Source: an uncultured Candidatus Sumerlaeota bacterium (GTDB taxonomy: Bacteria; Sumerlaeota; Sumerlaeia; MWCT01; JAUWMI01). Taken from it: 64,000 bases of DNA. The stretch spans positions 888 through 64,887 of the forward strand of contig CAYVXD010000002.1 of the NCBI GenBank assembly GCA_964454265.1, written 5' to 3'. A model generated the notes under the pieces. It made no database searches, was not told the origin of the DNA, and saw only the letters and a list, made by a program, of their open reading frames with translations. Position numbers and translations under genes: made by a program. Shown here piece by piece: positions 3,080 through 46,892 of this stretch (within the stretch, counting starts at the first letter, position 1; the number at the start of each line of letters is the position of its first letter).

Positions 3080-5955
3080 GCTAGCCAGTAGGTTCCTGCG
3101 TCAAGTGTAAGATTAGTTGGGGTGCCTGCGCTGATTGGAGCAACCACGAAGTCGTCTGTTGCGGTGTTGGCAATCTGTCCGGATTGCCAGCGGAGGGTTT
3201 TAGTGGTGGCTTCTTCGTAAAGTGCAAGGCGAAGCGTTCCGCTGGAGCTGTGGGAATATAAGTATACATTCGTCGCCAAGCCTGTCTCCGGCATAGTGAA
3301 TTTGGTGGCTTTTGCGAAGCCTTTCTGTGAAAGGCCAACGCGCACTACTCGCCCAGGTCTCGTGTAAGTGCTAAAATAGGCGTATCCTGTGAGCTGATCG
3401 ATCACCGCGCTCTCAAGATCATTCTCTCCCGAATTCAGCGTCACGGCACCCACCCGGCTCGGTGGGTTGGAACCTGAACCCAGCGCTACCTTCACCACTC
3501 GCCCGGGACTGGTAGAAGTGCCGAAATAGGCGTAGCCGGCCGAGGGATCGATCACCGCGCTCTCAAGATCATTCTCTCCCGAATTCAGCGTCACGGTACC
3601 CACCCGGCTCGGTGGATTGGAACCCGAACCCAGCTCTACCTTCACCACCCGCCCGGGACTGTTCCAAGTGCCGAAATAGGCGTATCCTGCGGATGAATCG
3701 ATCACCGCACATTGTAGAGAATTTTCTCCCGAATTCAAGGTTACTGCTCCGATGCGGGTTGGGGGGTTGGCGCCTGACCCCAGCCCTATTTTCACTACTT
3801 TCCCAGGCAAGGTATAGGTACCGAAGTAGGCATAGCCGGCAGAGGGGTCGATCACCGCGGCGCGGAGTCCATCCTCTCCTGAATTCAGGGTTACCGCTCC
3901 AACACGTGTGGGCGGGTTAGCGCCCGTGCCTAGCGCTACCTTTACCACTCGTCCGGGGCTGGTAGCCGTGCCGAAGTAGGCATAGCCTGCAGACGGATCG
4001 ATCACTGCACTCGCGAGATAGTCTTCCAATGGATTCGTTGCTACCGCTCCCACCCGGCTGAAGGTAGAAAGGTCAATCTTAACCACCTGCGGGGTTGTAC
4101 TACTGGTGCCGAAGTAGGCATAGCCCGCCGAGGAATCAATCACCGCACACCGGAGATTGTACTCTGGGAAACTCAGCGTTAATGCTGCAACGCGAGTGTT
4201 GCTTGAAAGGTCAACCTTTACTATCCACCCGCCGGGGTAGTTAGACGTGCCGAAATAGGCATATCCGGCCTGGGAATCGATTACTCCGCTCCTGAGTTCA
4301 TTCTCTCCCGCAGTGAGCATCACCCCACCCACGCGGCTCGGGGGGTTGGAGCCCGAACCCAGTGCAACCTTCACCACGAGCCCAGCGCTCGTATCTGTAC
4401 CGAAATAGACATAGCCGGACGAAGAGTCAATCACTGCGCTCACGACATGATCCTCTAACCCACTTAAAACAACATAACCCACCTCGCTAGGAGGGTTGGA
4501 ACCTGAACCAAGCGCTACCTTCATCACTTGACCCGCATCAGTGTCTGAGCCGAAATAGGCGTACCCTGCCGCCGTGTCGATTGCTGCAGACGCAAGATTA
4601 CCGACTATCAGTGTTGCTGCCCCCACGCGGGTGGGCGGGTTAGAGCCGGAACCGAGCGCCACCTTCACCACGTAGCCAGCTGCGGTATCTGTGCCGAAAT
4701 ATGCGTAACCAGCGGAAGGATCAATCACCGCGCACCGCAGTCGACCCTCTGCTGGATTCAACGACACTGCCCCGACACGGCTAGGCGGGTTAGAGCCCGA
4801 ACCGAGCGCAACCTTCACCACTTGCCCGGGGTAGCTTCGGGTTCCAAAATAGGCGTAGCCTGCGGAGGTATCGATCACCGCGCTGTATAGATACATCTCT
4901 CCAGAATTCAGTGTCACAGCCCCGACGCGGCTCGGCGGATTAGTGCCTGAGCCCAGTGCCACCTTGACCACGCGGCCAGGGTTGGTATCTGTGCCGAAGT
5001 AGGCATAACCCGCTGAGGTATCGATCGCCGCGCTCACAAGATAACTCTCCCCAGAGTTCAGTGTTAAGGCTCCGACGCGTGTGGGCGGGTTAGAGCCGGA
5101 GCCCAGTGCCACCTTGACTACTCGGCCAGGGTTGGTATCAGTGCCGAAATAGGCATAGCCCGCCGATGTGTCAATCACCGCACTCCGGAGAGCATTCTCT
5201 CCCTCATCCAGTATTAGCGATCCCACGCGGGTAAAAGTGGATAGGTTCATCTTTACCACTTTCCCTGGGCTGGTCCCAGTGCCGAAATAGGCGTAGCCTG
5301 CGGAGGTGTCGATCACCGCGCTAAGGAGATAATCATCTCCCACATTCAGCACCTCCGTGTCCAAGCGCCGAAGACCTGCATTTGGATATGCCGTGCTGCC
5401 GGGCGTATTGTTACCTGCAATCGGATCGCTGAAGCGCAGAGAGCGATCGGTGAAGACGTTGCCTGCACGGTCGGTAATCCGCACCGCAACCGTGTAGTAG
5501 CCCTCGCTGAGGCCGTGTGCGTTCCATTCCGCCTGATAGAGTCCCAGCGTTGCGTCAGTGCTCACGCCGCCCAAATTCATTGGCGCAGGCTTGAGTACAA
5601 GCGTATCTACGGGTTGCGCCTCTTCCTCGCCAGAAGCTGTGATCACCGCCTCAACGCGCTCGACACCCTCGACCCCCTTCACCACTGCCTGGATCTTTAG
5701 TTGCCCGCCGTTCTTCACCGACGGCGACGACAGGCTCGGTATCACGTGGATACGGCCATCGCCCGAACCGATTTTCTCTCCCGCCTGCACTGCAGCGGCT
5801 GGCGCAACCGCCGATTGGATAGCTGCGTTTTCATTCCCCGCAAAGCCAACTGAGCCAAAGCAAAAAAGCGGTAGCATCATAACACGTAATGCAACAACTG
5901 TGACTTTTTGCAGATAAGAAAATACTACTGCGTTGTGGGAACGTCTTTTGTCCAT
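3043..5955 (-). CDS. Secreted giant repeat protein: signal peptide, Ig-like domain, 14 beta-propeller-like repeats, C-terminal jelly-roll-like domain
   Basis: 970-aa ORF with a hydrophobic N-terminus. It carries 14 copies of the unit (A/S)VID-x-SAGYAYFGT-x3-PG-x-VVKVALGSGSNPP-x-RVG-x-TLNSGE. Confidence 0.85.
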   Translation of the reverse strand: MDKRRSHNAVVFSYLQKVTVVALRVMMLPLFCFGSVGFAGNENAAIQSAVAPAAAVQAGEKIGSGDGRIHVIPSLSSPSVKNGGQLKIQAVVKGVEGVERVEAVITASGEEEAQPVDTLVLKPAPMNLGGVSTDATLGLYQAEWNAHGLSEGYYTVAVRITDRAGNVFTDRSLRFSDPIAGNNTPGSTAYPNAGLRRLDTEVLNVGDDYLLSAVIDTSAGYAYFGTGTSPGKVVKMNLSTFTRVGSLILDEGENALRSAVIDTSAGYAYFGTDTNPGRVVKVALGSGSNPPTRVGALTLNSGESYLVSAAIDTSAGYAYFGTDTNPGRVVKVALGSGTNPPSRVGAVTLNSGEMYLYSAVIDTSAGYAYFGTRSYPGQVVKVALGSGSNPPSRVGAVSLNPAEGRLRCAVIDPSAGYAYFGTDTAAGYVVKVALGSGSNPPTRVGAATLIVGNLASAAIDTAAGYAYFGSDTDAGQVMKVALGSGSNPPSEVGYVVLSGLEDHVVSAVIDSSSGYVYFGTDTSAGLVVKVALGSGSNPPSRVGGVMLTAGENELRSGVIDSQAGYAYFGTSNYPGGWIVKVDLSSNTRVAALTLSFPEYNLRCAVIDSSAGYAYFGTSSTTPQVVKIDLSTFSRVGAVATNPLEDYLASAVIDPSAGYAYFGTATSPGRVVKVALGTGANPPTRVGAVTLNSGEDGLRAAVIDPSAGYAYFGTYTLPGKVVKIGLGSGANPPTRIGAVTLNSGENSLQCAVIDSSAGYAYFGTWNSPGRVVKVELGSGSNPPSRVGTVTLNSGENDLESAVIDPSAGYAYFGTSTSPGRVVKVALGSGSNPPSRVGAVTLNSGENDLESAVIDQLTGYAYFSTYTRPGRVVRVGLSQKGFAKATKFTMPETGLATNVYLYSHSSSGTLRLALYEEATTKTLRWQSGQIANTATDDFVVAPISAGTPTNLTLDAGTYWLAWQVDTSADVPS
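3360..5345 (-). repeat. Intragenic tandem coding repeats (about 129-150 nt units, 14 copies)
   Basis: Adjacent units are nearly identical at DNA level. For example, 3396-3510 and 3546-3660 share 'gatcgatcaccgcgctctcaagatcattctctcccgaattcagcgtcacgg...' with only a few substitutions at a 150-nt period. Confidence 0.9.
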
Positions 5956-6150
5956 CTACTCATCTCCTTGCATAATATATTTGTTTTAATGTTTTGTTTT
6001 TGCTCTTTATTTTTAAGAGATAGATTCCTATAACATACTTTGTTCAGGACAATGGGTATTACCTCCTGATTAGCTATGCAATTGACAATGAAGTTACTCT
6101 GGTACTTCGTGCTATTTATAGCCTTCGGTGGAAAGGCCTGCCTAACCAAC

Positions 6151-6528: not shown

Positions 6529-8370
6529 CTACGGAATCGCGAGATAGTCAATCGCAACGCTGTCCATGTAGATGGTGCCGCCCTGCGCCGAGCTGAAGTC
6601 GAGCAGGTCAAGCGTCACAATGAATCCATCCTGTCCGGCCGTTGGTGAGCCAGGGAGAATTGGGGTCTCCCAGTAGACGTCGTAGTCAGTTCCACCAACT
6701 GTCGGCATTGCTCCTGGGCCAGCGCCCTGGCTGTTCAGCTCCATGGTCTGCGTCATCTGGCCGTCTTCATTCTGGATACGGAGCCTGACCTGTGGCATGG
6801 TGTTGCGTGCCACGTCACTCGCACACCTCAAGGTGTAGCTCGCACGATAGAGCTTATCCACTACATACGTAAGCTCGTTTGCCGTGCCACTGGACTGCCA
6901 CCATCCATAATTGGCATCCGCAGTGGTGCTAGCCGTGATGGAGAGCGTGCCAGTGCCTTCTCCGCCTGACGTCACCGGGCCAAATCCTACGTTGGTAACG
7001 AATCCCCAGTTGGAAAATTCGCCGCCACTGGCGTACGACTTGACCAATGTGCCAAGTGCCGGAAACGGGAACCGCTCTACAGTCACGGTATCTACATAGT
7101 GCGTTCCATACTGCGCCACGTCAAAGTCAAGCATATCAAAAGCCACACCCAGACTGCCGCTCACCACAGGCGCAAAGTAGCAGGTATATTCTTTCGTTGT
7201 TGGATCTGTGGGCAAGGAGTTGCTGTACGAGCCTGAGGCATTCACCACCTGCGTTGCTGACTCGAGTGATTGATCCTGCACCCAGCGCATACGGAACTGC
7301 GGATTCTGAGCTGCACTTGCCTGATTCGAGGAGACTTCGTACGTTGCACGGTATACGTTGTCTGCTACGTAGGCAAGTTCTGACGGCCCGGTCCATAGCC
7401 CTACGCGGTGCGTGCCATCATTTGCCGAGCTGACGCTTATCCGGCCACCACTATAGCTGGACGATGCCCCTGAGAATCCAGAACCACTCAGCGGCAGGAA
7501 TCCCCAGCCCTCCATGCTTGAATCATACGTATATTCCTTGACGAATGTAACTGGCGTTGCGGTGGGCGTCGGTGTTACGGCTGGTGTAGGAAATGCCATT
7601 GCATCGAGCTCCACCTGCCCGGGAATACTCTGCGCACTCGCGTCAAGATAGAGGCTGAACGTGCCGCCTGATGTATTGTATGCTATCAGGTCCCCATCAT
7701 CATAGAGCGTAGAATTCAACCTGGCTGCTGCATCGAAGGAGAATATCCACTCGGTATCACTCTCGCGACTGAAGGCATTGACATCTACCTGAGCTGGTAC
7801 TCCTTCAGCTGAGCCGTCAAAGTCAAGGCTGGCAGAGAACCCGCTCCCCGTGGTAAAGTGCACCATGTCCTCATCAGCTACCAGGCCTACCACGGGCAAC
7901 CGTGCATCTTCTTCAAGAGAGAATGAGAACTCGAACGGAGAGACAGCAATTACGTCTACTGCATCCAGATTCACCCTGGCTGGCAGGCCGTTGGCCGAGC
8001 CGTCCCACAGCAGGCTGATGCTCACTCCATTCCAGACCAGGAGGTCTTCATCTGCGTAAACCGTGCCGCCGATCTTTACATCTTCTGAAAGCGAGAAGAC
8101 CAGCAGGTCTTTTTCTATTAAATCCACGGCATCAATATTCACCTGTGGGGGGAGCAGGCTGGTTAAAGGCGAGCCATAGAGCGCATACGCGCCCACCCCA
8201 TCTGTATCTACCAGCTCATGGTCTGCGGGCGACAGGCTCACGTACGAGGCATCTTCATTATGCGAAAACACAAACGACGCCTCAGCAACCCCCGGCGGCC
8301 CAATACTCAGGCACACCAGCGCAGCCAGGAGCCAAAACGCTAGAACTAGCGATTGTCGATAATTTCTCAT
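6529..8370 (-). CDS. Secreted protein: 4 N-terminal ~45-aa repeats, PT linker, two CBM/jelly-roll-like domains
   Basis: 613-aa ORF with a signal peptide (LVLAFWLLAALVCLSIGPPGVAEA). Repeats read V(N/D)(L/I/V)DA(V/F)... and the linker reads FPTPAVTPTPTATP. Confidence 0.8.
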   Translation of the reverse strand: MRNYRQSLVLAFWLLAALVCLSIGPPGVAEASFVFSHNEDASYVSLSPADHELVDTDGVGAYALYGSPLTSLLPPQVNIDAVDLIEKDLLVFSLSEDVKIGGTVYADEDLLVWNGVSISLLWDGSANGLPARVNLDAVDVIAVSPFEFSFSLEEDARLPVVGLVADEDMVHFTTGSGFSASLDFDGSAEGVPAQVDVNAFSRESDTEWIFSFDAAARLNSTLYDDGDLIAYNTSGGTFSLYLDASAQSIPGQVELDAMAFPTPAVTPTPTATPVTFVKEYTYDSSMEGWGFLPLSGSGFSGASSSYSGGRISVSSANDGTHRVGLWTGPSELAYVADNVYRATYEVSSNQASAAQNPQFRMRWVQDQSLESATQVVNASGSYSNSLPTDPTTKEYTCYFAPVVSGSLGVAFDMLDFDVAQYGTHYVDTVTVERFPFPALGTLVKSYASGGEFSNWGFVTNVGFGPVTSGGEGTGTLSITASTTADANYGWWQSSGTANELTYVVDKLYRASYTLRCASDVARNTMPQVRLRIQNEDGQMTQTMELNSQGAGPGAMPTVGGTDYDVYWETPILPGSPTAGQDGFIVTLDLLDFSSAQGGTIYMDSVAIDYLAIP

Positions 8371-8821: not shown

Positions 8822-8834
8822 CTTCTATCCCTTT

Positions 8835-8870
8835 ACGGACTAACGGACTAACTGACCAACGGTCCTACGG
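8835..8870. repeat. 8-nt-period array (ACGGACTA-like), inverted relative to 8388..8452
   Basis: Reads acggactaacggactaactgaccaacggtcctacgg. It contains the 20-mer ACGGACTAACTGACCAACGG shared with 10562.. and 11793.., and it overlaps the stop codon of 8865..10430. Confidence 0.9.
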
Positions 8871-10430
8871 ATGATTATTCACCGACGTGCAGCTCGTCAG
8901 GTTAAAGTTCGTGCCGTTATTGACACAGCAGTTTTCCGCGACAAGGGATTGGATAGCCTCGATCCCATCGCCTGTATTATCGGAGCACGTATTGTGGCTG
9001 ACTGTGCCGCCTTCGTTTATACGAATGCCGTTATCTCCGTTGTAAACGCAGGTATTGCCGCTGACTGTGCTGTTATCCCATGCATCGATTCCATCGTCTC
9101 CGTTGTTAGTGCAGATATTGCCGGTCACTGTGCCGTTGACACTCGAATCGATTCCATCCTCTCCGTTGTTATTGCAGATATTACCGGTGATCATACAGTC
9201 CCTGTTTGCTATGATTCCGGAACCACCATTGTTGTAACAGCGCAGGGCATCAAATTGGGATTTCTCTGCCACACCAGCGTGAATTCCGCTCCCCCGCCAG
9301 TCGCGCACGGTGCCATTGCGGATGGCAATGTTATATTGGGCACCGTTGACATAGATGCCATGGCCAGTGGTCCCTGCTGCTTTGCCAGGCCCAATTAATG
9401 CGTGACCGTTCAGGTCCAGCGTGACATTGTCGGCATCAATAGTGATGCCATTTGTGTTCTGCGTAGCCAGCGTGAGGTCGCCAGTCAGGCGATACATTCC
9501 GGGCTGGGAGATGCTGTAGGGCAGCTCGCTTATGAGAATATCCAATTGATTGTCCGCTACCGCATCCACCGGTGTCGTGTTTCCGATCAAGGTGTTCCCT
9601 GAGACGATATTGTCAGCACCGTCAAGGTCCAGCCCGCGGTCATTATCCGTACAATGATTATCGCTAATACGATTGTCAGAACCAGTAGCGAGTATGCCAG
9701 CACCATCTCCTCCACTGCCGTTCGAGTCGCAGGTATTATCCACTACCCGGCAATCACTCGACACCTGTATTCCATCGCCGGTGTTACTCTGGCAGGTATT
9801 GCCGCTGACCGTGCAGCCTTCGTATGTATGGATGCCGTCGCCTGTATTACTACTGGAGGAATTGCCGGTAACTGTGCTGCCATTCCATGCAAATATGCCG
9901 TTGCCTCCGTTTTCACGGCAGGTATTGCCGCTGGCAATGCTGCCATGGCGTACATTGATGCCGTAGTCTTCGTTAGCTCTGCAGATATTGCCGCTGACTA
10001 TGCTGCAAGCGCCTGTAATGATGCCACCGATACCGTTGTTATAACATCGCAATGCCTCAAACTGACAGTTTTCGGAGAGTATGGCATTAACCCCATTCCA
10101 CTGCCAGTCGCGCACGGTCCCATTGCGTACGGCAATGTTGTATTGAGCTCCGCTGACCACGATTCCAGTGCCATATCCCCCTGCTGCTTTACCAGGCCCG
10201 ATTATCGCATGCCCGTTCAGGTCCAGGGTGACATTGTCCGCGTCAATAGTGATGCCATGCGTATTAGTCTGGGTTGTGGATAGGTCATCAACTACAATAT
10301 ATGAACCGGAGCTGGAGATGGTGTAAGGAATCTCTGCGATGTCAATCTGCCCATCACCAGCCCAGGCAGCTGCCCCCAGCAAAAGACACAAACCAAGAAT
10401 ACAAGCCGTTGTTGTGATACGTCGTTTCAT
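8865..10430 (-). CDS. Secreted right-handed parallel beta-helix (PbH1/NosD-like) repeat protein with an internally duplicated module
   Basis: 521-aa ORF with a signal peptide. The module NVTLDLNGHA(I/L)IGPGKAAG...YNIA(V/I)RNGTVRDW occurs twice, at about aa 65 and aa 335. The rest is many G-N-x-C-x-x-N-x-x-DGI turns. Confidence 0.85.
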   Translation of the reverse strand: MKRRITTTACILGLCLLLGAAAWAGDGQIDIAEIPYTISSSGSYIVVDDLSTTQTNTHGITIDADNVTLDLNGHAIIGPGKAAGGYGTGIVVSGAQYNIAVRNGTVRDWQWNGVNAILSENCQFEALRCYNNGIGGIITGACSIVSGNICRANEDYGINVRHGSIASGNTCRENGGNGIFAWNGSTVTGNSSSSNTGDGIHTYEGCTVSGNTCQSNTGDGIQVSSDCRVVDNTCDSNGSGGDGAGILATGSDNRISDNHCTDNDRGLDLDGADNIVSGNTLIGNTTPVDAVADNQLDILISELPYSISQPGMYRLTGDLTLATQNTNGITIDADNVTLDLNGHALIGPGKAAGTTGHGIYVNGAQYNIAIRNGTVRDWRGSGIHAGVAEKSQFDALRCYNNGGSGIIANRDCMITGNICNNNGEDGIDSSVNGTVTGNICTNNGDDGIDAWDNSTVSGNTCVYNGDNGIRINEGGTVSHNTCSDNTGDGIEAIQSLVAENCCVNNGTNFNLTSCTSVNNHP

Positions 10431-10557
10431 AGTGCCGTCCTCCTTCTCTTTGTCACTTTACTTTGCAGTTCTACGTTTCGCCGTCTTACGCACTGTTAAA
10501 CCAATACGAACACAAGATATTCCATACTCTCAAAATCCACCCACTCCCCTCCTTTCT

Positions 10558-10618
10558 CTAAACGGACTAACTGACCAACGGACTAACGGTCTCAACCGAC
10601 AAACCGGCCAACCAATCA
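10558..10618. repeat. 8-nt-period array, solo copy
   Basis: Reads ctaaacggactaactgaccaacggactaacggtctcaaccgacaaaccggccaaccaatca. It is preceded by cctttctct, as in the 11789 copy, and overlaps the stop of 10616..11668. Confidence 0.9.
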
Positions 10619-11668: not shown

Positions 11669-11788
11669 TTGATCACTCCTTTTTTGTTAGAATAGTATGG
11701 AACGTACACTTTTGCATCTCGCATTGTTTTCGTGCCAATCCCACAAGGACTCTTCGCACTCCAACAATACACGCCTCACCACCTTTCT

Positions 11789-11853
11789 CTAAACGGACTA
11801 ACTGACCAACGGTCTAACGGACTAACCGACCAACGGACATACGAATTAACCGA
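11789..11853. repeat. 8-nt-period array, solo copy in the 5' region of 10616..11668
   Basis: Reads ctaaacggactaactgaccaacggtctaacggactaaccgaccaacggacatacgaattaaccgac. It shares 31 identical nt (cctttctctaaacggactaactgaccaacgg) with the 10549.. copy. Confidence 0.9.
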
Positions 11854-12020
11854 CTTTACACAACGAGCTTTCCAACTTTCACCTTCTCTGGTTTGGACTA
11901 TTTAAAAATGTAAAACCGGGTAGCAAAGTGCATCATTTACTGACTAGCCATGTAAGTGACAACGCGGTTACTCTGACGCATCGTGATAGTGTATAATTTT
12001 TGTATCCATTTTTTTTTAAT

Positions 12021-32289: not shown

Positions 32290-32577
32290 TCATTCCCCCT
32301 CTGTGTTTTCCGACGCTTGCCGATCTGTTGTGAGTTGCTCCGTGAGTATTGTTGCCAGGTTACTTGAGACTTCCAGAATTCCTGAAGCAATGGTAAAGTG
32401 TTGTTCCTGCTCGTTATGTTTGACCGTGATGCAGCCCTTTTTGAGAGTTGTGATCAGGGGCGCATGGTGTGCCAGTACTCCTAGATATCCGAGCTCGCCA
32501 GGCGCAATGAGAGACGTAACTGACCCGCTGAAGACGACCCGTTCCGGGGTGATAATGCGCAACTCGAATTCCGTCAT
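32290..32577 (-). CDS. atpC: F1 ATP synthase epsilon subunit, short form (beta-sandwich only)
   Basis: 95 aa, reading ELRIITPERVVFSGSVTSLIAPGELGYLGVLAHHAPLITTLKKGCITV...SGILEV. This aligns with the epsilon N-terminal domain. Only about 13 aa follow it, so there is no two-helix C-terminal domain. Confidence 0.85.
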   Translation of the reverse strand: MTEFELRIITPERVVFSGSVTSLIAPGELGYLGVLAHHAPLITTLKKGCITVKHNEQEQHFTIASGILEVSSNLATILTEQLTTDRQASENTEGE

Positions 32578-32657: not shown

Positions 32658-32891
<234 letters not shown>

Positions 32892-33073
32892 TTATCTTCC
32901 TTCCATGGTCCTGTTCGGCGTGTTTCCCTTTTGCGATTCATCGCCCACTTCACGGACATCCGACTTGGCGTCAACGCGACGGAATTGTGACAGACGGATT
33001 TCTCCTAGCGGACTCGTCTCGAGACTCTCTCGGCGGTGGGAGAAGACGCACTTGGGTCGCCCCCATCGTGAAT

Positions 33074-34144
33074 TCAGATAACATCAATAACAAGCTCTTT
33101 CGTCACGCTGATCAGCAACAGAGCGAGAGTTATGAAATAATATCCCGTGGAGCTGATTGGAACCAGGTTTAGCATTCGCCTGCCAGGTCCGCACGTTGAG
33201 GTTTGGTTCGTAAGCCGCTCATCGAGAAAAATGGCAGAGTAAATAAAGATGATGGGCAGTGACAACCAGGGAAGCTCGCAAAGGAATGCAAAACCGATTA
33301 AGAGTGGAGCCTCCGCCACAGAAAAGTCCTGTGGTTTCCGCTGATGCAGAAACAGCGATAGCCCAATGAGGGCTACACCGGGTGGTATCGCCACCCAATC
33401 GCATTCGACTTCGAAACGTATCACAAACGCTCCCAGCACAATAATCCCAGCAAGCAGTGCTCCGCGCACAGCGGCAATCGAGAGGCACGCCGGAAGAACC
33501 GACCGGTGGCATCTCAAACTCCGTCTCAATTGCCAGGCGATCCCGTTAAGTAGAACAACCCCGAAAAGAGCGTAAGAAACGGCCGGGTTTAGGTAAGAGT
33601 GCAGAATGAACCCATTGGCGCTCACGTCACGGCATAGCATGAACAACAGAGGATACGACAGAAAACGAACGGTCCGGGGAAGTTCGGTTCGGAGAATGTT
33701 GGGGTTGCGCCACGAGAATCCATCTTTTACCGGAAGTGGGGAACGGAAGGGGAAAAGCAGCGGAACTCGGTTCGCATACTCCTCATATGTTCTCCCAAAC
33801 AGACTCCTCAGCGCAGTTTCTTCGCGGCGCATAGTAGGTAGGTACACAGCACACCACCAGACCGGGAACACGATCATCAGCAGCATAGAGCCGGACATCG
33901 CAACTATTGCTAAGTCAACGAAAATATTGCCGAGGTAGAAGGGGTGACGAACAAACCGATATGGGCCAGAGGTTGTGACGTCTCTATTCTGATGCAGGCA
34001 CCCCTTCGCCCACAGGCGAAGGGTGATTCCCACAAGCAGGAGTAAGGAGCCCACAGCAATACCAAAAGGCGTTACCTGACCGGCAAGCAGGCCAAGTATT
34101 ACTAGGTAGGTGCGAAATCCACCTCGATTACATGGCAAACGCAT
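33074..34144 (-). CDS. Isoprenylcysteine carboxyl methyltransferase (ICMT/PEMT) family membrane protein with extra C-terminal TM domain
   Basis: GPYRFVRHPFYLGNIF...REE-x-x-L-x-x-x-FG-x-x-Y-x-x-Y motif in the N-terminal half. The protein has about 9 TM segments. Confidence 0.7.
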   Translation of the reverse strand: MRLPCNRGGFRTYLVILGLLAGQVTPFGIAVGSLLLLVGITLRLWAKGCLHQNRDVTTSGPYRFVRHPFYLGNIFVDLAIVAMSGSMLLMIVFPVWWCAVYLPTMRREETALRSLFGRTYEEYANRVPLLFPFRSPLPVKDGFSWRNPNILRTELPRTVRFLSYPLLFMLCRDVSANGFILHSYLNPAVSYALFGVVLLNGIAWQLRRSLRCHRSVLPACLSIAAVRGALLAGIIVLGAFVIRFEVECDWVAIPPGVALIGLSLFLHQRKPQDFSVAEAPLLIGFAFLCELPWLSLPIIFIYSAIFLDERLTNQTSTCGPGRRMLNLVPISSTGYYFITLALLLISVTKELVIDVI

Positions 34145-34175: not shown

Positions 34176-34236
34176 AACTATGGTTTATATGCTTTTCGTA
34201 TAAGAACCTTTATGCAGCCAATGAGCGCTATAATAC
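34176..34236. repeat. 61-nt intergenic module, copy R1 (5' of the ICMT-like gene)
   Basis: Reads aactatggtttatatgcttttcgtataagaacctttatgcagccaatgagcgctataatac. Confidence 0.85.
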
Positions 34237-34308
34237 GATTGTCCTTCTCCGCCCATAAGTGATGTGATTGCAATGAAGTAGTGGCGACTTTCCATCCTTC
34301 TTGGGCGC

Positions 34309-34327
34309 TTATATGGTTTCCGTATAG
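34309..34327. repeat. Partial module copy R4 (19 nt identical to R3)
   Basis: Reads ttatatggtttccgtatag. Confidence 0.7.
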
Positions 34328-34396
34328 CATCCATTTAGGCGTTCCTCTTTTTCATTTGGAACTCAATAATCAAGCTTGCCTTCAAACTCTTTTCTC

Positions 34397-34834
34397 TTAT
34401 TTGCCTTTCTTCCTGGTCTTTGCCTTTCTCAGGTATTTCAAATCAGCTTTATCCTGTTCCCTATTTGCTTTTTCCTTGTTCCTGATAAGATCATCGAGCG
34501 AAATATATGATACATTGGCTTCTCCGTATTTACCAGTTGTTCTTTTTGACCAGGCATCTTCAAAACTGCCGATGCCAGAAATACTACTCATTAAATCAAT
34601 CCGAACTGGCGCAACTCCCAGCTGCACGGTGAGGTCGGGATTATATAAGTCAGCGATAGTTAATCCGAGGTCGTATCCACGAAAGAATGCTCGGATGGCC
34701 TTCAGTATCCTGAGCGCAGATTCTGCTGTGGCTTCATGAAGGATATGGATGTTTTTCGTTGCCCTCGGTCTTGCATAGAAAGCGACAGCATGAGCTCCGA
34801 CAATCAAGAACTTAACGCCATTTGCGTTTAACAA
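34397..34834 (-). CDS. Nucleotidyltransferase-fold-like small protein (uncharacterised family)
   Basis: 145-aa ORF (TTG start) reading LNANGVKFLIVGAHAVAFYARPRATKNIHIL. The in-frame upstream sequence DYEEFFE extends the similarity, so the ORF may be fused to 34812..35069 (see findings). Confidence 0.55.
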   Translation of the reverse strand: MLNANGVKFLIVGAHAVAFYARPRATKNIHILHEATAESALRILKAIRAFFRGYDLGLTIADLYNPDLTVQLGVAPVRIDLMSSISGIGSFEDAWSKRTTGKYGEANVSYISLDDLIRNKEKANREQDKADLKYLRKAKTRKKGK

Positions 34835-35069
34835 TTCGAAAAACTCTTCGTAGTCTTGGTGTGCTATTCGCCCCCCTTGTCTTTAGACATCCTAATAAAC
34901 ATGAATCCACAGAGTTAACTCGGTCTTCTGGAGAAAGGCCCTCAAGCCAGAAACGAAAATCTTCTTCTTCGGCCTCGGCCTTAGGCACAACCCTCGCCTT
35001 CCACTTTTTCCCATGTTTGTCTATGCTACTTCCACGTTCCATCATAAGTAGACCCCTTAAGAGCACCAC
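34812..35069 (-). CDS. Small hypothetical protein, overlapping or possibly frameshift-fused with 34397..34834
   Basis: 85-aa ORF. It overlaps the next ORF by 23 nt, and a G6 run (plus-strand C6, 34871..34876) lies at the frame junction. Confidence 0.4.
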   Translation of the reverse strand: MVLLRGLLMMERGSSIDKHGKKWKARVVPKAEAEEEDFRFWLEGLSPEDRVNSVDSCLLGCLKTRGANSTPRLRRVFRIVKRKWR

Positions 35070-35141
35070 AAGTTCTAACCGAATTCCTGATGCTAGTTAC
35101 AAAGATAAATATCAGAGTACATATTATTGAATCACCCAACG

Positions 35142-35501
35142 TCAAGGTTGAGCGGTTTTATCCGCCCCAACCGTTTGTTGAGTATTTTTCCTCTGCAATT
35201 CAATCTTCCACCATTTCGTAGTATTGTAAAGCAATCCTTCCTTTTCTCGGGAGGGTGCAAGATGCAAGCCGACACACAATACAAACAACAAAAATGATAT
35301 TATTACGCCAATAAAGCAAATAGACCTTCTTCTTCGTATCGCACCTACAACGGTTATGATCGGAGCAACGATGAGTAATATCCACGCGATTATCTAGCCC
35401 GTTCTAGTGAAATAGGTTAATGTCATTAATTGACCAGCAAGAACTGCGCATATAATAAAGATTATCGAAGTCGTTATCATTATGGAATTCTTGGTCTTCA
35501 T
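35142..35501 (-). pseudogene. Putative 3-TM small membrane protein interrupted by an in-frame TAG
   Basis: Manual translation gives MKTKNSIMITTSIIFIICAVLAGQLMTLTYFTRTG-TAG-IIAWILLIVAPIITVVGAIRRRRSICFIGVIISFLLFVLCVGLHLAPSREKEG...*. The TAG is at 35396..35394. The track's ORF 35200..35385 is in another frame. Confidence 0.3.
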
Positions 35502-35512
35502 TTTCGCTACTC

Positions 35513-35573
35513 AACTATTGTTTATATAGATCCGTATAAGAACCCAAATCATGCAAATCTATCAGTATAACAC
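35513..35573. repeat. 61-nt intergenic module, copy R2
   Basis: Reads aactattgtttatatagatccgtataagaacccaaatcatgcaaatctatcagtataacac. Confidence 0.85.
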
Positions 35574-35739
35574 TCCTGTTAATCTCCTTTCTTTTCTTTT
35601 CAACGTTCCGTGCTCACTCGTGTCTTGTAGCTGGTGATTTTATATGGGTCCGGATAATACCCGATTGCAATTCACAAGAGATGTAAGGTGTCCGCTGGGC
35701 TACGAACGCCTCGGGTAATGATGTCCGTTGGATTTATTG

Positions 35740-36078
35740 TTAGCTGCCTAGTATATCTTCAACCTCATTTCGAAGAGTTGGCATACTATCCTTTATGGCA
35801 GACCAGACCGTTGCATCGTCAATGATGTCATAACCATGGACAAGGACGTTGCGAAAACCGATAATCTTCTGATGACCGGTAATTTTGTCTATTATTTCTG
35901 GGTGCTCTCTTTTTAATCTTCTCAACGCCTCGCCAATCACAAGGAATTTGCGCTCTACAGCGGCCTTCACCATGGAATTGTCAGAATATTCTTCAAAACC
36001 CATGTCATGAGTGAATTCTTTGATTTCATCGCACGCCTGTTTAATATCGAAGAGGTAAGCTTTGGGCTCATGATCCAT
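35740..36078 (-). CDS. hepT: HepT-like (DUF86) RNase toxin of a type VII MntA/HepT TA pair
   Basis: 112 aa with the R-x4-H-x-Y motif (RNVLVHGY). It overlaps the upstream NTase gene by 11 nt. Confidence 0.85.
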   Translation of the reverse strand: MDHEPKAYLFDIKQACDEIKEFTHDMGFEEYSDNSMVKAAVERKFLVIGEALRRLKREHPEIIDKITGHQKIIGFRNVLVHGYDIIDDATVWSAIKDSMPTLRNEVEDILGS

Positions 36079-36367
36079 ATATTCGCACCTTGTCTCGATG
36101 TAAGCTTCTTTTAACGTAAGGATTTTTCACTGCGCTTTCCTGAATGACATCAACTTGCCTTCCTAAATGCTGCTCCAGTCGCATTTTCAGTTCAAAGTAG
36201 CGGTCGAAGAGCCTGTCGAAACCAACAAACTCTACGAGGACATCAATATCGCTTCTTTCATGTTGGAAATCATGTCTTGATGCTGAGCCAACGAGATCGA
36301 GGCGCTTCACCCGAAGATCCCTGCAAATTTTTTCGATGACCTGTTTGTGATCTTCTATTTTAAACAT
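36068..36367 (-). CDS. mntA: MntA-like minimal nucleotidyltransferase antitoxin
   Basis: 99 aa with LDLVGSASRHDFQHERSDIDVLVEF (the GS-x10-11-DxD NTase signature). Confidence 0.85.
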   Translation of the reverse strand: MFKIEDHKQVIEKICRDLRVKRLDLVGSASRHDFQHERSDIDVLVEFVGFDRLFDRYFELKMRLEQHLGRQVDVIQESAVKNPYVKRSLHRDKVRIYGS

Positions 36368-36393
36368 CTTCTCTTGCTCTTCCTTCTACACCT

Positions 36394-36454
36394 AACTATT
36401 GATTATATGGTTTCCGTATAGGAACCTTTGTATGTTTTTCTGTCGGTATAATAC
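36394..36454. repeat. 61-nt intergenic module, copy R3 (5' of mntA)
   Basis: Reads aactattgattatatggtttccgtataggaacctttgtatgtttttctgtcggtataatac. Confidence 0.85.
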
Positions 36455-36582
36455 TCCTTGACTCAGCAAAATGTAAAACTAAATCTGTCTTTTATCGAAG
36501 CTTCCTTTGCGGTGCGATGCACGAAGCGAGCTATTCCAATTTTCTGATGCCCCTTTCCCCGCCTGATAATCCCAACAGACTT

Positions 36583-36685
36583 AGAGCCTATCCCAAAAAT
36601 TCTGTCTTCCACAATGTCATTCTGAGAATCTCGCCGTCTTGAGATGCTTCACTCCGTTCAGCATGACAATTTTGGGATAGCCTCT
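36583..36685. repeat. MITE-like nested inverted-repeat element
   Basis: Outer arms are agagcctatcccaaaaatt and aattttgggatagcctct. Inner arms are gtcattctgag and ttcagcatgac. The track ORF 36588..36791 is a translation of this repeat. Confidence 0.7.
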
Positions 36686-36809
36686 TAGACCTGCTATTTG
36701 ACCCAGCTAGTCTGCGCCAGTATCGAAAATAGGGTACAGTCCACGCGCTCGTTCCTCGCTTGGGACAGTCCCCAATTTTTATCTCCCTCATTTCAAATAT
36801 GCCGAAGCA

Positions 36810-38288
<1,479 letters not shown>

Positions 38289-46468: not shown

Positions 46469-46545
46469 CGGGGCGTAGCGCAGTTGGCTAGCGCGCAGCG
46501 TTCGGGACGCTGAGGTCGGGGGTTCAAGTCCCCCCGCCCCGACCA
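46469..46545 (+). tRNA. tRNA-Pro (anticodon CGG), CCA encoded
   Basis: A manual cloverleaf folds cleanly. Acceptor CGGGGCG/CGCCCCG, D stem GCGC/GCGC, anticodon stem CAGCG/CGCTG with loop TTCGGGA, T arm GGGGG-TTCAAGT-CCCCC, discriminator A plus CCA. Total 77 nt. Confidence 0.95.
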
Positions 46546-46668
46546 GATGCAACTTTGCGAATTTATGGGGTAATATGGCAGAAGATATTTATAAATGCTT
46601 GTGAGAAAGCAAAAATACAAAAAACAGTAACAGTCCATGCCCTCAGGCATAGTTTTGCAACCCACCTT

Positions 46669-46693
46669 CACGCCGGAGGCGCATTTTCAACTT
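46669..46693. repeat. Left copy of a 25-nt perfect inverted repeat inside the recombinase remnant
   Basis: cacgccggaggcgcattttcaactt is the exact reverse complement of 46741..46765. Confidence 0.95.
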
Positions 46694-46740
46694 GAGTGCG
46701 GAACTGACCTGAGGTACATTCAAGAGATTTCAGGGCATAA

Positions 46741-46765
46741 AAGTTGAAAATGCGCCTCCGGCGTG
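46741..46765. repeat. Right copy of the 25-nt perfect inverted repeat
   Basis: Reads aagttgaaaatgcgcctccggcgtg. Confidence 0.95.
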
Positions 46766-46892
46766 CAGTAAGACTACCGAAATCTATACGCAAGTGAGCA
46801 CTAAAGATATTGGAAGAATCAAAAGTCCACTGGATAGTCTGAATATAATCAAGGGGCGTAATAAGTGACAAAATTTGTCAATGCGAAGGGGA

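Follow-up and report, generated by a model that had tools for sequence, protein, structure and literature searches.

A 61-nt repeat in the atp operon of a Sumerlaeota bacterium as a probable attI-type integron attachment site

A stretch of 64,000 nucleotides (nt) from an uncultured Candidatus Sumerlaeota bacterium (assembly GCA_964454265.1, contig CAYVXD010000002.1, positions 888 to 64,887; hereafter the window) contains three 61-nt repeats, R1, R2 and R3, in an islet of small genes located between atpD and atpC. The repeated module is very probably an attI-type integron attachment site, owing to its GTTRRRY junction, the complementarity between this junction and the R'' boxes of cassette attC sites, and its position after integron-integrase (intI) genes and their remnants. 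Judged from the sequence comparisons, it appears to be a genuine recombination site, neither an artefact nor a generic repeat. With three attI-type sites and no integrase gene in the window, the islet forms a small cassette array that is partly decayed, and it resembles the CALINs (groups of clustered attC sites that have no integron-integrase).

The repeated module and its junction

Re-reading of the sequence confirmed that R1, R2 and R3 are each 61 nt long and share one layout, at the positions given in the first-pass annotation (Table 1). Two parts can be distinguished in the 61-mer on the coding (minus) strand: part B, GTRTTATAS, which is a core-like repeat (GTTATRC), and part C, a 33-nt core that starts ∼30 nt after B. 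The C core is organized as GGTTCTTATACGG-AAA-CCATATAAWC-AATA-GTT followed by RRRY, and its conserved sequence is GGTTCTTATACGGAAACCATATAAWCMATAGTT. The 24-nt pattern TTATATN6CGTATARGAACC (up to 3 mismatches) was matched three times in the 64 kb versus 0.03 expected matches, at R1, R3 and a further site, R4, while R2 escapes the pattern owing to its 5-nt gap. Likewise, the 12-mer CGTATARGAACC (up to 1 mismatch) occurred three times versus 0.31 expected. Within the window, all module copies detected by pattern searches with mismatches and by a hidden Markov model (HMM) of the core are confined to the atpD-atpC islet. The modules end 31 nt (R1), 11 nt (R2) and 26 nt (R3) before a start codon, in agreement with the range of 11-31 nt noted earlier. 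Their junctions read GTTAGGT (R3), GTTGAGT (R2) and GTTCGGC (R1); the fit of the first two to GTTRRRY, already remarked upon in the annotation, is real and meaningful.

R4 had been described as a partial copy of R3. It is instead a distinct palindromic site that reads GGATGCTATACGGAAACCATATAAGCGCCCAAG and has a counterpart ∼123 nt upstream of the main site in many loci, where it is termed the A site. Together, R4 and R1 constitute a full A-B-C composite of the same kind as those that follow intI genes in other contigs. An A-like sequence is also located ∼150 nt upstream of the R2 junction, i.e., at the expected distance, and is probably a degenerate A site belonging to R2.

Outside the window, a single pass through species-representative genomes with a 22-base degenerate pattern revealed the core in 8 loci from four or more phyla (Ignavibacteria, Sedimentisphaerales, Phycisphaerae, another Planctomycetota metagenome-assembled genome (MAG), Nitrospiraceae and three Sumerlaeota contigs). 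The core was also present in 56 metagenome loci (loci and contigs are cited below by their L numbers), whereas none was detected in viral contigs and none was found in plasmids. In total, the core HMM recognized 93 copies over all of the collected sequence, several loci having a second or third copy; two or three copies occur in L008, L009, L028, L036, L042, L043 and L055. In nearly every locus a co-oriented open reading frame (ORF) begins 0-65 nt downstream. The exact core sequence was not found in the searchable literature and, although integrons are well known, we found neither a description of this family of sites nor one of copies arranged in tandem.

Conservation of the module ends at AGTT and is followed by a weak RRRY. 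The four positions after AGTT lie outside every search pattern. Among 61 sites with differing downstream sequence, purines make up 80% at position +1 and 74% at +3, G makes up 74% at +2, and pyrimidines account for 80% at +4. The 3' end of the module is therefore GTTRRRY, the integron core site, which bears out the earlier suggestion of a cassette junction or recombination site, since the module ends in such a core site where the cassettes begin.

The same point emerged from an all-against-all blastn comparison of the loci, in which many pairwise alignments break off at positions 0 to +6 relative to AGTT. Four sets of contigs (L003, L035, L038 and L039; L011, L018, L024, L025, L031, L057 and L064; L015, L019, L036 and L062; and L017, L021, L027 and L063) each have a common upstream side, including the variable core positions -8, -6 and -5, together with unrelated downstream sequence. 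The exchange point thus lies at the extreme right of the core. A crossover inside the GGAAACC spacer is contradicted by the right-arm variants, which travel with the upstream side.

Cassette attC sites and integron-integrase genes

In integron cassettes, the first bases after the G of the junction are contributed by the attC of the cassette itself. The R'' box (RYYYAAC) that heads this attC should therefore be complementary to the GTT of the junction and the four nucleotides that follow. An exact reverse complement of these seven nucleotides was present downstream in 21 of the 59 non-redundant sites, whereas 1000 rounds of junction permutation yielded 4.9 on average and never more than 13. Most of these matches head classical attC hairpins, as sought with a home-made scan for AAC...GTT hairpins; the attC of L005, for example, reads GTCGAAC-AATTC-CATGCAGACGACGCC...GGATGCC-GTTCGGC. 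Non-consensus junctions are matched as well (GTTCTCT by AGAGAAC and GTTGTGT by ACACAAC). In L027, L037 and L056, chains of R''/R' complementarity run from cassette to cassette, i.e., a module is followed by successive cassette-attC units, which is the classical layout.

A canonical attC is located in the islet itself, 3' of R2. Its R''/R' and L''/L' boxes and its extrahelical bases are all present (inverted core sites, one extra G; -9.3 kcal/mol over 50 nt), and its ACTCAAC at positions 35177-35183 is the exact complement of the GTTGAGT of R2. It closes a 375-nt cassette (35514-35140) that begins at R2. The RYYYAAC partner that the first-pass annotation had failed to find is indeed absent inside the module, but it exists at the far end of the cassette. 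The accompanying view that the module itself is no classical attC also stands: R1-R3 show folding z-scores of ∼0 to +0.8, with no consistent R'' partner and no long hairpin.

The other two junctions of the islet have less complete partners. AGCTAAC, which overlaps the hepT stop codon, matches the complement of the R3 junction at 6 of 7 positions, with no convincing hairpin after it; it probably represents the R'' of the attC, now decayed, that belonged to the mntA-hepT cassette. GCCGAAC, the complement of the R1 junction, is found at 32913-32919 with no evident attC hairpin, and this match may be due to chance.

In many loci, the A site is a near-perfect palindrome, GGSGTCTTATRCGG-AAA-CCATATAAGACSCC, that ends ∼123 nt before the junction, and the 3' ends of integron-integrase genes, oriented like the cassettes, are located directly upstream of it. 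The remnant in L025 comprises ∼119 IntI codons with in-frame stops (a pseudogene) just upstream and in the same orientation, and includes the IntI-specific motif RKYPNA..W.WQWVFP. It is 49.6% identical to residues 218-330 of IntI1 (E 3.6e-27), and its best NCBIfam family is TIGR02249, integron integrase (129.6 bits, versus 68 for XerC). The last 20-40 intI codons (...TTMIYTHVLNRGGKGVRSPLD.L and the stop) were recognized in L012, L015, L016, L019, L021, L027, L036 (twice), L053 and L056, and the remnants stop 173-207 nt before the junction. A putative remnant of this kind upstream of R3 in the window (translation ...IIRRGKGHQ...) did not reach significance in tblastn. A tRNA or tmRNA fragment upstream of A was rejected, since ARAGORN and Rfam searches were negative and the GATTTGAAC stretch is the 3' end of intI.

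When the L025 IntI fragment was used as a query against proteins, thousands of entries annotated as integron integrases were returned, and the best 120 homologues were all 115-196 amino acids (aa) long, i.e., fragments. P0001 and P0067 exceed the TIGR02249 cut-off over model positions 121-315, and the intI of the P0067 contigs is divided between two ORFs, of 137 aa and 195 aa. Pseudogenized integrases seem to be the rule in this clade, and no intact integrase was seen beside an exact-core module. Divergent composites follow intI in L067 (A, B and a C ending in ...ATATAATCATTGATGG) and in L075 (A and a C ending in ...CTAATCATTGTT, followed by GGGCAGC; junction GTTGGGC). The order A...(B)...C, ending in a core site, therefore represents the region between intI and the first cassette, and it typifies a broad integron clade in which intI points towards the cassettes. 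The motif GTTAT(A/G)C is found in B as well as in the left arm of A.

L036, a 9-kb contig, carries three intI-remnant units; at its positions 5959 and 6910, the left arm of A, with its intI-remnant context, is joined to the right arm of C. In comparison with L036 206-329 and L015, these hybrids correspond to an A-B-C from which the 123 nt separating two identical 19-nt stretches are missing, and their simplest explanation is deletion between the identical TTATACGGAAACCATATAA stretches. Just past the attI region, an insertion with an IS91-type Y2 transposase and an XerD-like recombinase distinguishes L066/L068 (11092-13088) from L067/L069, and is found in some copies of otherwise identical contigs.

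The content of the atpD-atpC interval differs between close relatives. A Sumerlaeota MAG contig, L009 (and L054), encodes AtpD and AtpG that are 98% and 93.5% identical, respectively, to those of the window, and its DNA aligns at 95% until ∼95 nt beyond the atpD stop codon, after which the two diverge. On this similarity, the window organism is itself most likely a member of the Sumerlaeota. At the same spot after atpD, immediately past the point of divergence, L009 carries an R2-type module ahead of a gene for a 371-aa repeat protein, followed by a canonical attC (6956-7028; R'' AGCTAAC, R' GTTAGGC), a second module and a 254-aa ORF. None of the cassettes of the window is present in L009.

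In terms of mechanism, CCATATAAWC and GTTRRRY within C would form the inverted simple site of the attI. By analogy with what is known of integrons, an IntI whose gene lies elsewhere in the genome or has since been lost would bind the core-like repeats, cut between the G and TT of the terminal core and exchange strands with the folded attC of a circular cassette, whose ORF would then land just downstream. Insertion of circular attC-bearing cassettes at this point would account for the sequence after AGTT, which differs from copy to copy, and for the ribosome-binding site (RBS) and ORF that follow within a few tens of bases.

Several observations weigh against this interpretation. No intI gene was found in the window. 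The islet contains a single clean attC, those expected for the mntA-hepT and DUF2204 cassettes being decayed or absent, and three modules occur within 2.3 kb, versus the one attI described per integron. In addition, the core of L008, L014 and L022 travels with the downstream ORF and not with the upstream side, and crossover at the terminal GTT therefore does not explain every exchange.

Other explanations of the module

The module may itself be the mobile element, i.e., an ORF-less cassette of ∼85-160 nt, moved by IntI, which acts as a portable attI/promoter unit and plants new capture and expression points within arrays and host operons (here atpD/atpC). Module segments in arrays can have crossover points on both sides: in L009, a 142-nt segment separates the R' of the canonical attC from the G and TT of the module junction, and in L042 and L060 B, which lies ∼55 nt before the junction, is at the same time the R' of a canonical attC. 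Such a unit would explain why the module is nearly identical in at least four phyla and why copies occur in tandem next to dead integrases, and it accords with the several modules per locus that occur even where intI is absent. However, no R'' complementary to the segment starts was found, the module lacks an attC-like fold, and the commonest layout, one module followed by attC-bounded cassettes and often preceded by intI remnants, is the classical attI position. This is the main alternative to the attI-type site, though we consider it rather unlikely.

Sites of the attC type fold as imperfect hairpins, 57-141 nt long, in which R''/R' and L''/L' boxes are accompanied by extrahelical bases. Conceivably, the module could correspond not to an attI but to the conserved 3' half of an attC that is unusually long and lineage-homogeneous, resembling the Vibrio cholerae repeats (VCR). 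Inside arrays the module does sit between cassettes, and in some of them an R''-like 7-mer located 110-120 nt upstream of the following junction is complementary to the cassette start, exactly so in L036 and L042 and at 6 of 7 positions in L028 (permutation p ∼0.02). However, the 115-125-nt stretches form no single long hairpin (z from +0.5 to -3.4, with 5' and 3' ends unpaired in the folds), the R'' of L042 pairs with B instead, the same arrays contain short classical attC sites, and the window copies are without such an R''. A long attC is therefore improbable.

The core also has features of a promoter. A TATAAT or TATAAA hexamer is conserved at -13 to -8 from the junction, and transcripts would start approximately at the junction, with an RBS following within 10-60 nt. 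Sigma-70 promoters have -35 and -10 hexamers 16-18 nt apart; no conserved -35 accompanies the hexamer of the module, and a sigma-70 scan did not flag the cores. A second role of the core as cassette promoter can be proposed only tentatively, at somewhat less than even chances. That the module is nothing but a shared promoter/operator, with a dimeric regulator at the palindrome TTATACGG-AAA-CCATATAA and no part in recombination, is a much weaker proposition. The mostly purine +1, the RBS and ATG within 10-65 nt and the near-palindromic core would suit it, but it cannot explain the break in similarity exactly at AGTT, the complementarity to a distant R'' or the fixed place after intI, and the downstream genes are without a common function. 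We regard it as very improbable.

A generic intergenic repeat, such as a repetitive extragenic palindrome (REP) or a miniature inverted-repeat transposable element (MITE), or a structured RNA leader, can practically be dismissed: the module is repeated and intergenic and could form a small GGTTYC...GRAACC stem, but it is confined to the islet within the 64 kb, is always co-oriented with the next ORF, has no terminal inverted copies that could be found, folds no better than shuffled sequence in R1-R3 (z ∼0 to +0.8, both strands) and matches no Rfam family or tRNA. The folding and Rfam results likewise fail to support the structured 5' leader proposed in the annotation. Nor is the module ubiquitous regardless of context, as the annotation had envisaged for a generic repeat; it is widespread over phyla, yet its context and orientation are constant.

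Three further candidates were discarded. A Xer/dif site has an 11-6-11 layout with an inner ATAA-N6-TTAT; by inspection, the polarity of the module is reversed (TTATA...TATAA) and its gap is 8-9 nt and variable. The likeness to a Hin-type hix site or a T7-like promoter is superficial. For a MITE or transposon end, there are no inverted copies and no transposase common to the loci.

If the module is an attI-type site, as we consider most probable, this sharply conserved family with its A-B-C anatomy would offer a handle for the insertion points and first cassettes of environmental integrons whose intI faces the cassettes, and a way to recognize degraded integrons that are counted only as CALINs or overlooked. 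It would also provide a concrete substrate for the question of how such integrases use double-stranded sites. It is unusual that the copies occur in tandem and that they are located inside the atp operon. The tandem arrangement and the insertion into an essential operon raise the questions of how attI sites multiply, of atpC expression across a 4.2-kb array and of whether cassette transcription is driven by the site itself.

The atp islet and its relation to known integrons

The islet genes and the flanking atp genes are all encoded on the minus strand, and the G+C content drops from ∼52% to 37-45% over positions 34200-36800. The features of the islet are listed in Table 1.

Table 1. Features of the atpD-atpC islet and its flanks, in the direction of transcription; positions are those of the window. 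The assignment of the modules as attI-type is probable.
Feature	Position	Strand	Remarks
atpD, upstream flank of islet	36810-38210	minus	
R3, attI-type module (B + C)	36394-36454	minus	core HMM 45.4 bits
C core of R3	36394-36426		putative crossover G at 36396; cassette opens with TT at 36395-36394 (GTT followed by AGGT)
Cassette 1 cargo	35740-36367	minus	mntA 36068-36367 and hepT 35740-36078; PF01909, PF01934
AGCTAAC overlapping hepT stop codon	35739-35745	minus	read from sequence
A-like site of R2, degenerate	35637-35662	minus	GGGTATTATCCGGACCCATATAAAATC; weak: 8.9 bits, E 0.54
R2, attI-type module (B + C)	35513-35573	minus	G at 35515; cassette opens TTGAGT
Cassette 2a cargo, 35-aa hydrophobic ORF	35394-35501	minus	
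61-aa ORF	35200-35385	minus	may share cassette 2a
Canonical attC	35134-35183	minus	ACTCAAC-AAACG-GTTGGGGCGG-ATAAAA-CCGCTCAACC-TTGAC-GTTGGGT
Cassette 2b cargo	34397-35069	minus	85-aa ORF 34812-35069 and DUF2204 nucleotidyltransferase 34397-34834
R4, A site	34301-34332	minus	palindrome GCTATACGG-AAA-CCATATAAGC; A-site HMM 27.3 bits
R1, attI-type module (B + C)	34176-34236	minus	core HMM 40.9 bits
R1 junction	34178		G, then TTCGGC, then ICMT-like gene
ICMT/PEMT-like membrane methyltransferase	33074-34144	minus	first gene past R1
DUF433-like small ORF (frameshifted)	32658-32893	minus	last before atpC; identified by reading translation only
atpC, downstream flank of islet	32290-32577	minus	PF02823

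The mntA-hepT genes of cassette 1 constitute a toxin-antitoxin pair. The ORFs of cassette 2a had no family match. Look-ups of AtpC and the ICMT-like protein by exact sequence returned no entry. The DUF433-like (antitoxin-like) ORF requires a one-base shift in an A5 run to reach its ATG, and is either a pseudogene or the product of a homopolymer sequencing error. In other loci, the cassette regions are also rich in toxin-antitoxin genes (L003 3121-3361, L035 6370-6610, L038 2084-2201), including BrnA-like and HicB-like genes (read from translations only) and MntA/HepT, and such genes are common to different arrays as gene-sized mosaic blocks. The cassette region of L057 contains a group II intron (RF02001, RF01998; 9797-10163, 13326-13679) 1.7 kb past the module, and a tmRNA gene is located 5 kb downstream of the module.

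Between atpD and R3, a repeat of the GTCATTCTGAG...GAATGAC type that forms a long hairpin (∼36590-36690) accounts for a spurious 67-aa ORF (36588-36791) and a weak match to the Rfam family mir-5045; similar hairpins recur in L020, L039, L049, L032, L042 and L008. The sole recombinase trace in the window (46555-46850) looks unrelated. On the plus strand, a tRNA-like sequence (∼46470-46545, by eye only) is followed directly there by the frameshifted C-terminal remnant of a tyrosine recombinase (...HALRHSFATHL...KTTEIYTQVS...IKSPLDSL), whose sequence is not of the IntI type; by its appearance, the 46470-46850 segment looks like the scar of a tRNA-integrated island. Elsewhere in the window, tandem repeats with a 150-nt period occur inside a large gene region (3340-5363), and short runs of 8-nt ACGGACTA-type repeats (8827-8872, 10554-10599 and 11785-11854) are located upstream of three related repeat-rich segments.

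Among known systems, the module may be compared with attI1 of class 1 integrons. Both end in GTTRRRY, with the first cassette after the G, and both have an inverted partner a few bases upstream, in the present module as TATAAAC-AATA-GTTAGGC and in attI1 as CCTAAAAC-AAA-GTTAGGC. Upstream core-like direct repeats are a further common feature: attI1 consists of a simple site and the direct repeats DR1 (GTTACGC) and DR2 (GTTAT(G)G), which resemble the GTTAT(A/G)C of the present family (PMC3146285). Unlike attI1, to which there is no sequence homology past the core, the present family has an extra perfect palindrome, A, directly after the intI stop, and its module is located downstream of intI in the same orientation and is multi-copy, mostly beside dead integrase genes.

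The orientation recalls the "atypical" chromosomal integrons of Treponema denticola and its relatives, in which intI is transcribed towards attI and the cassettes (PMC3607928), an arrangement also seen in L025, L027, L056, L067 and L075. The Treponema attI is barely characterized and is described as one per integron, as is the case for integrons in general (PMC3607928). Sites of the attI kind have been described for only a handful of integron classes, and those of other classes lie beyond the reach of IntegronFinder (PMC4889954).

CALINs are defined as at least two attC sites with no integron integrase and may be left over from degraded integrons (PMC4889954). The islet shares with them an array without a nearby integrase and a cargo that is unknown or of the toxin-antitoxin type (PMC4889954); it differs in that its recurrent site is attI-type, accompanied by one clean attC and one probable decayed attC at the hepT stop. 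As described in a recent report (Sci Rep 2026; PMC12901181), cassettes of the Delta-attI type are flanked by a complete or partial attI instead of attC and are recombined by IntI1. Those cassettes come from clinical class 1/2 contexts with attI1 or attI2, whereas the present family is environmental and chromosomal and extends over several phyla.

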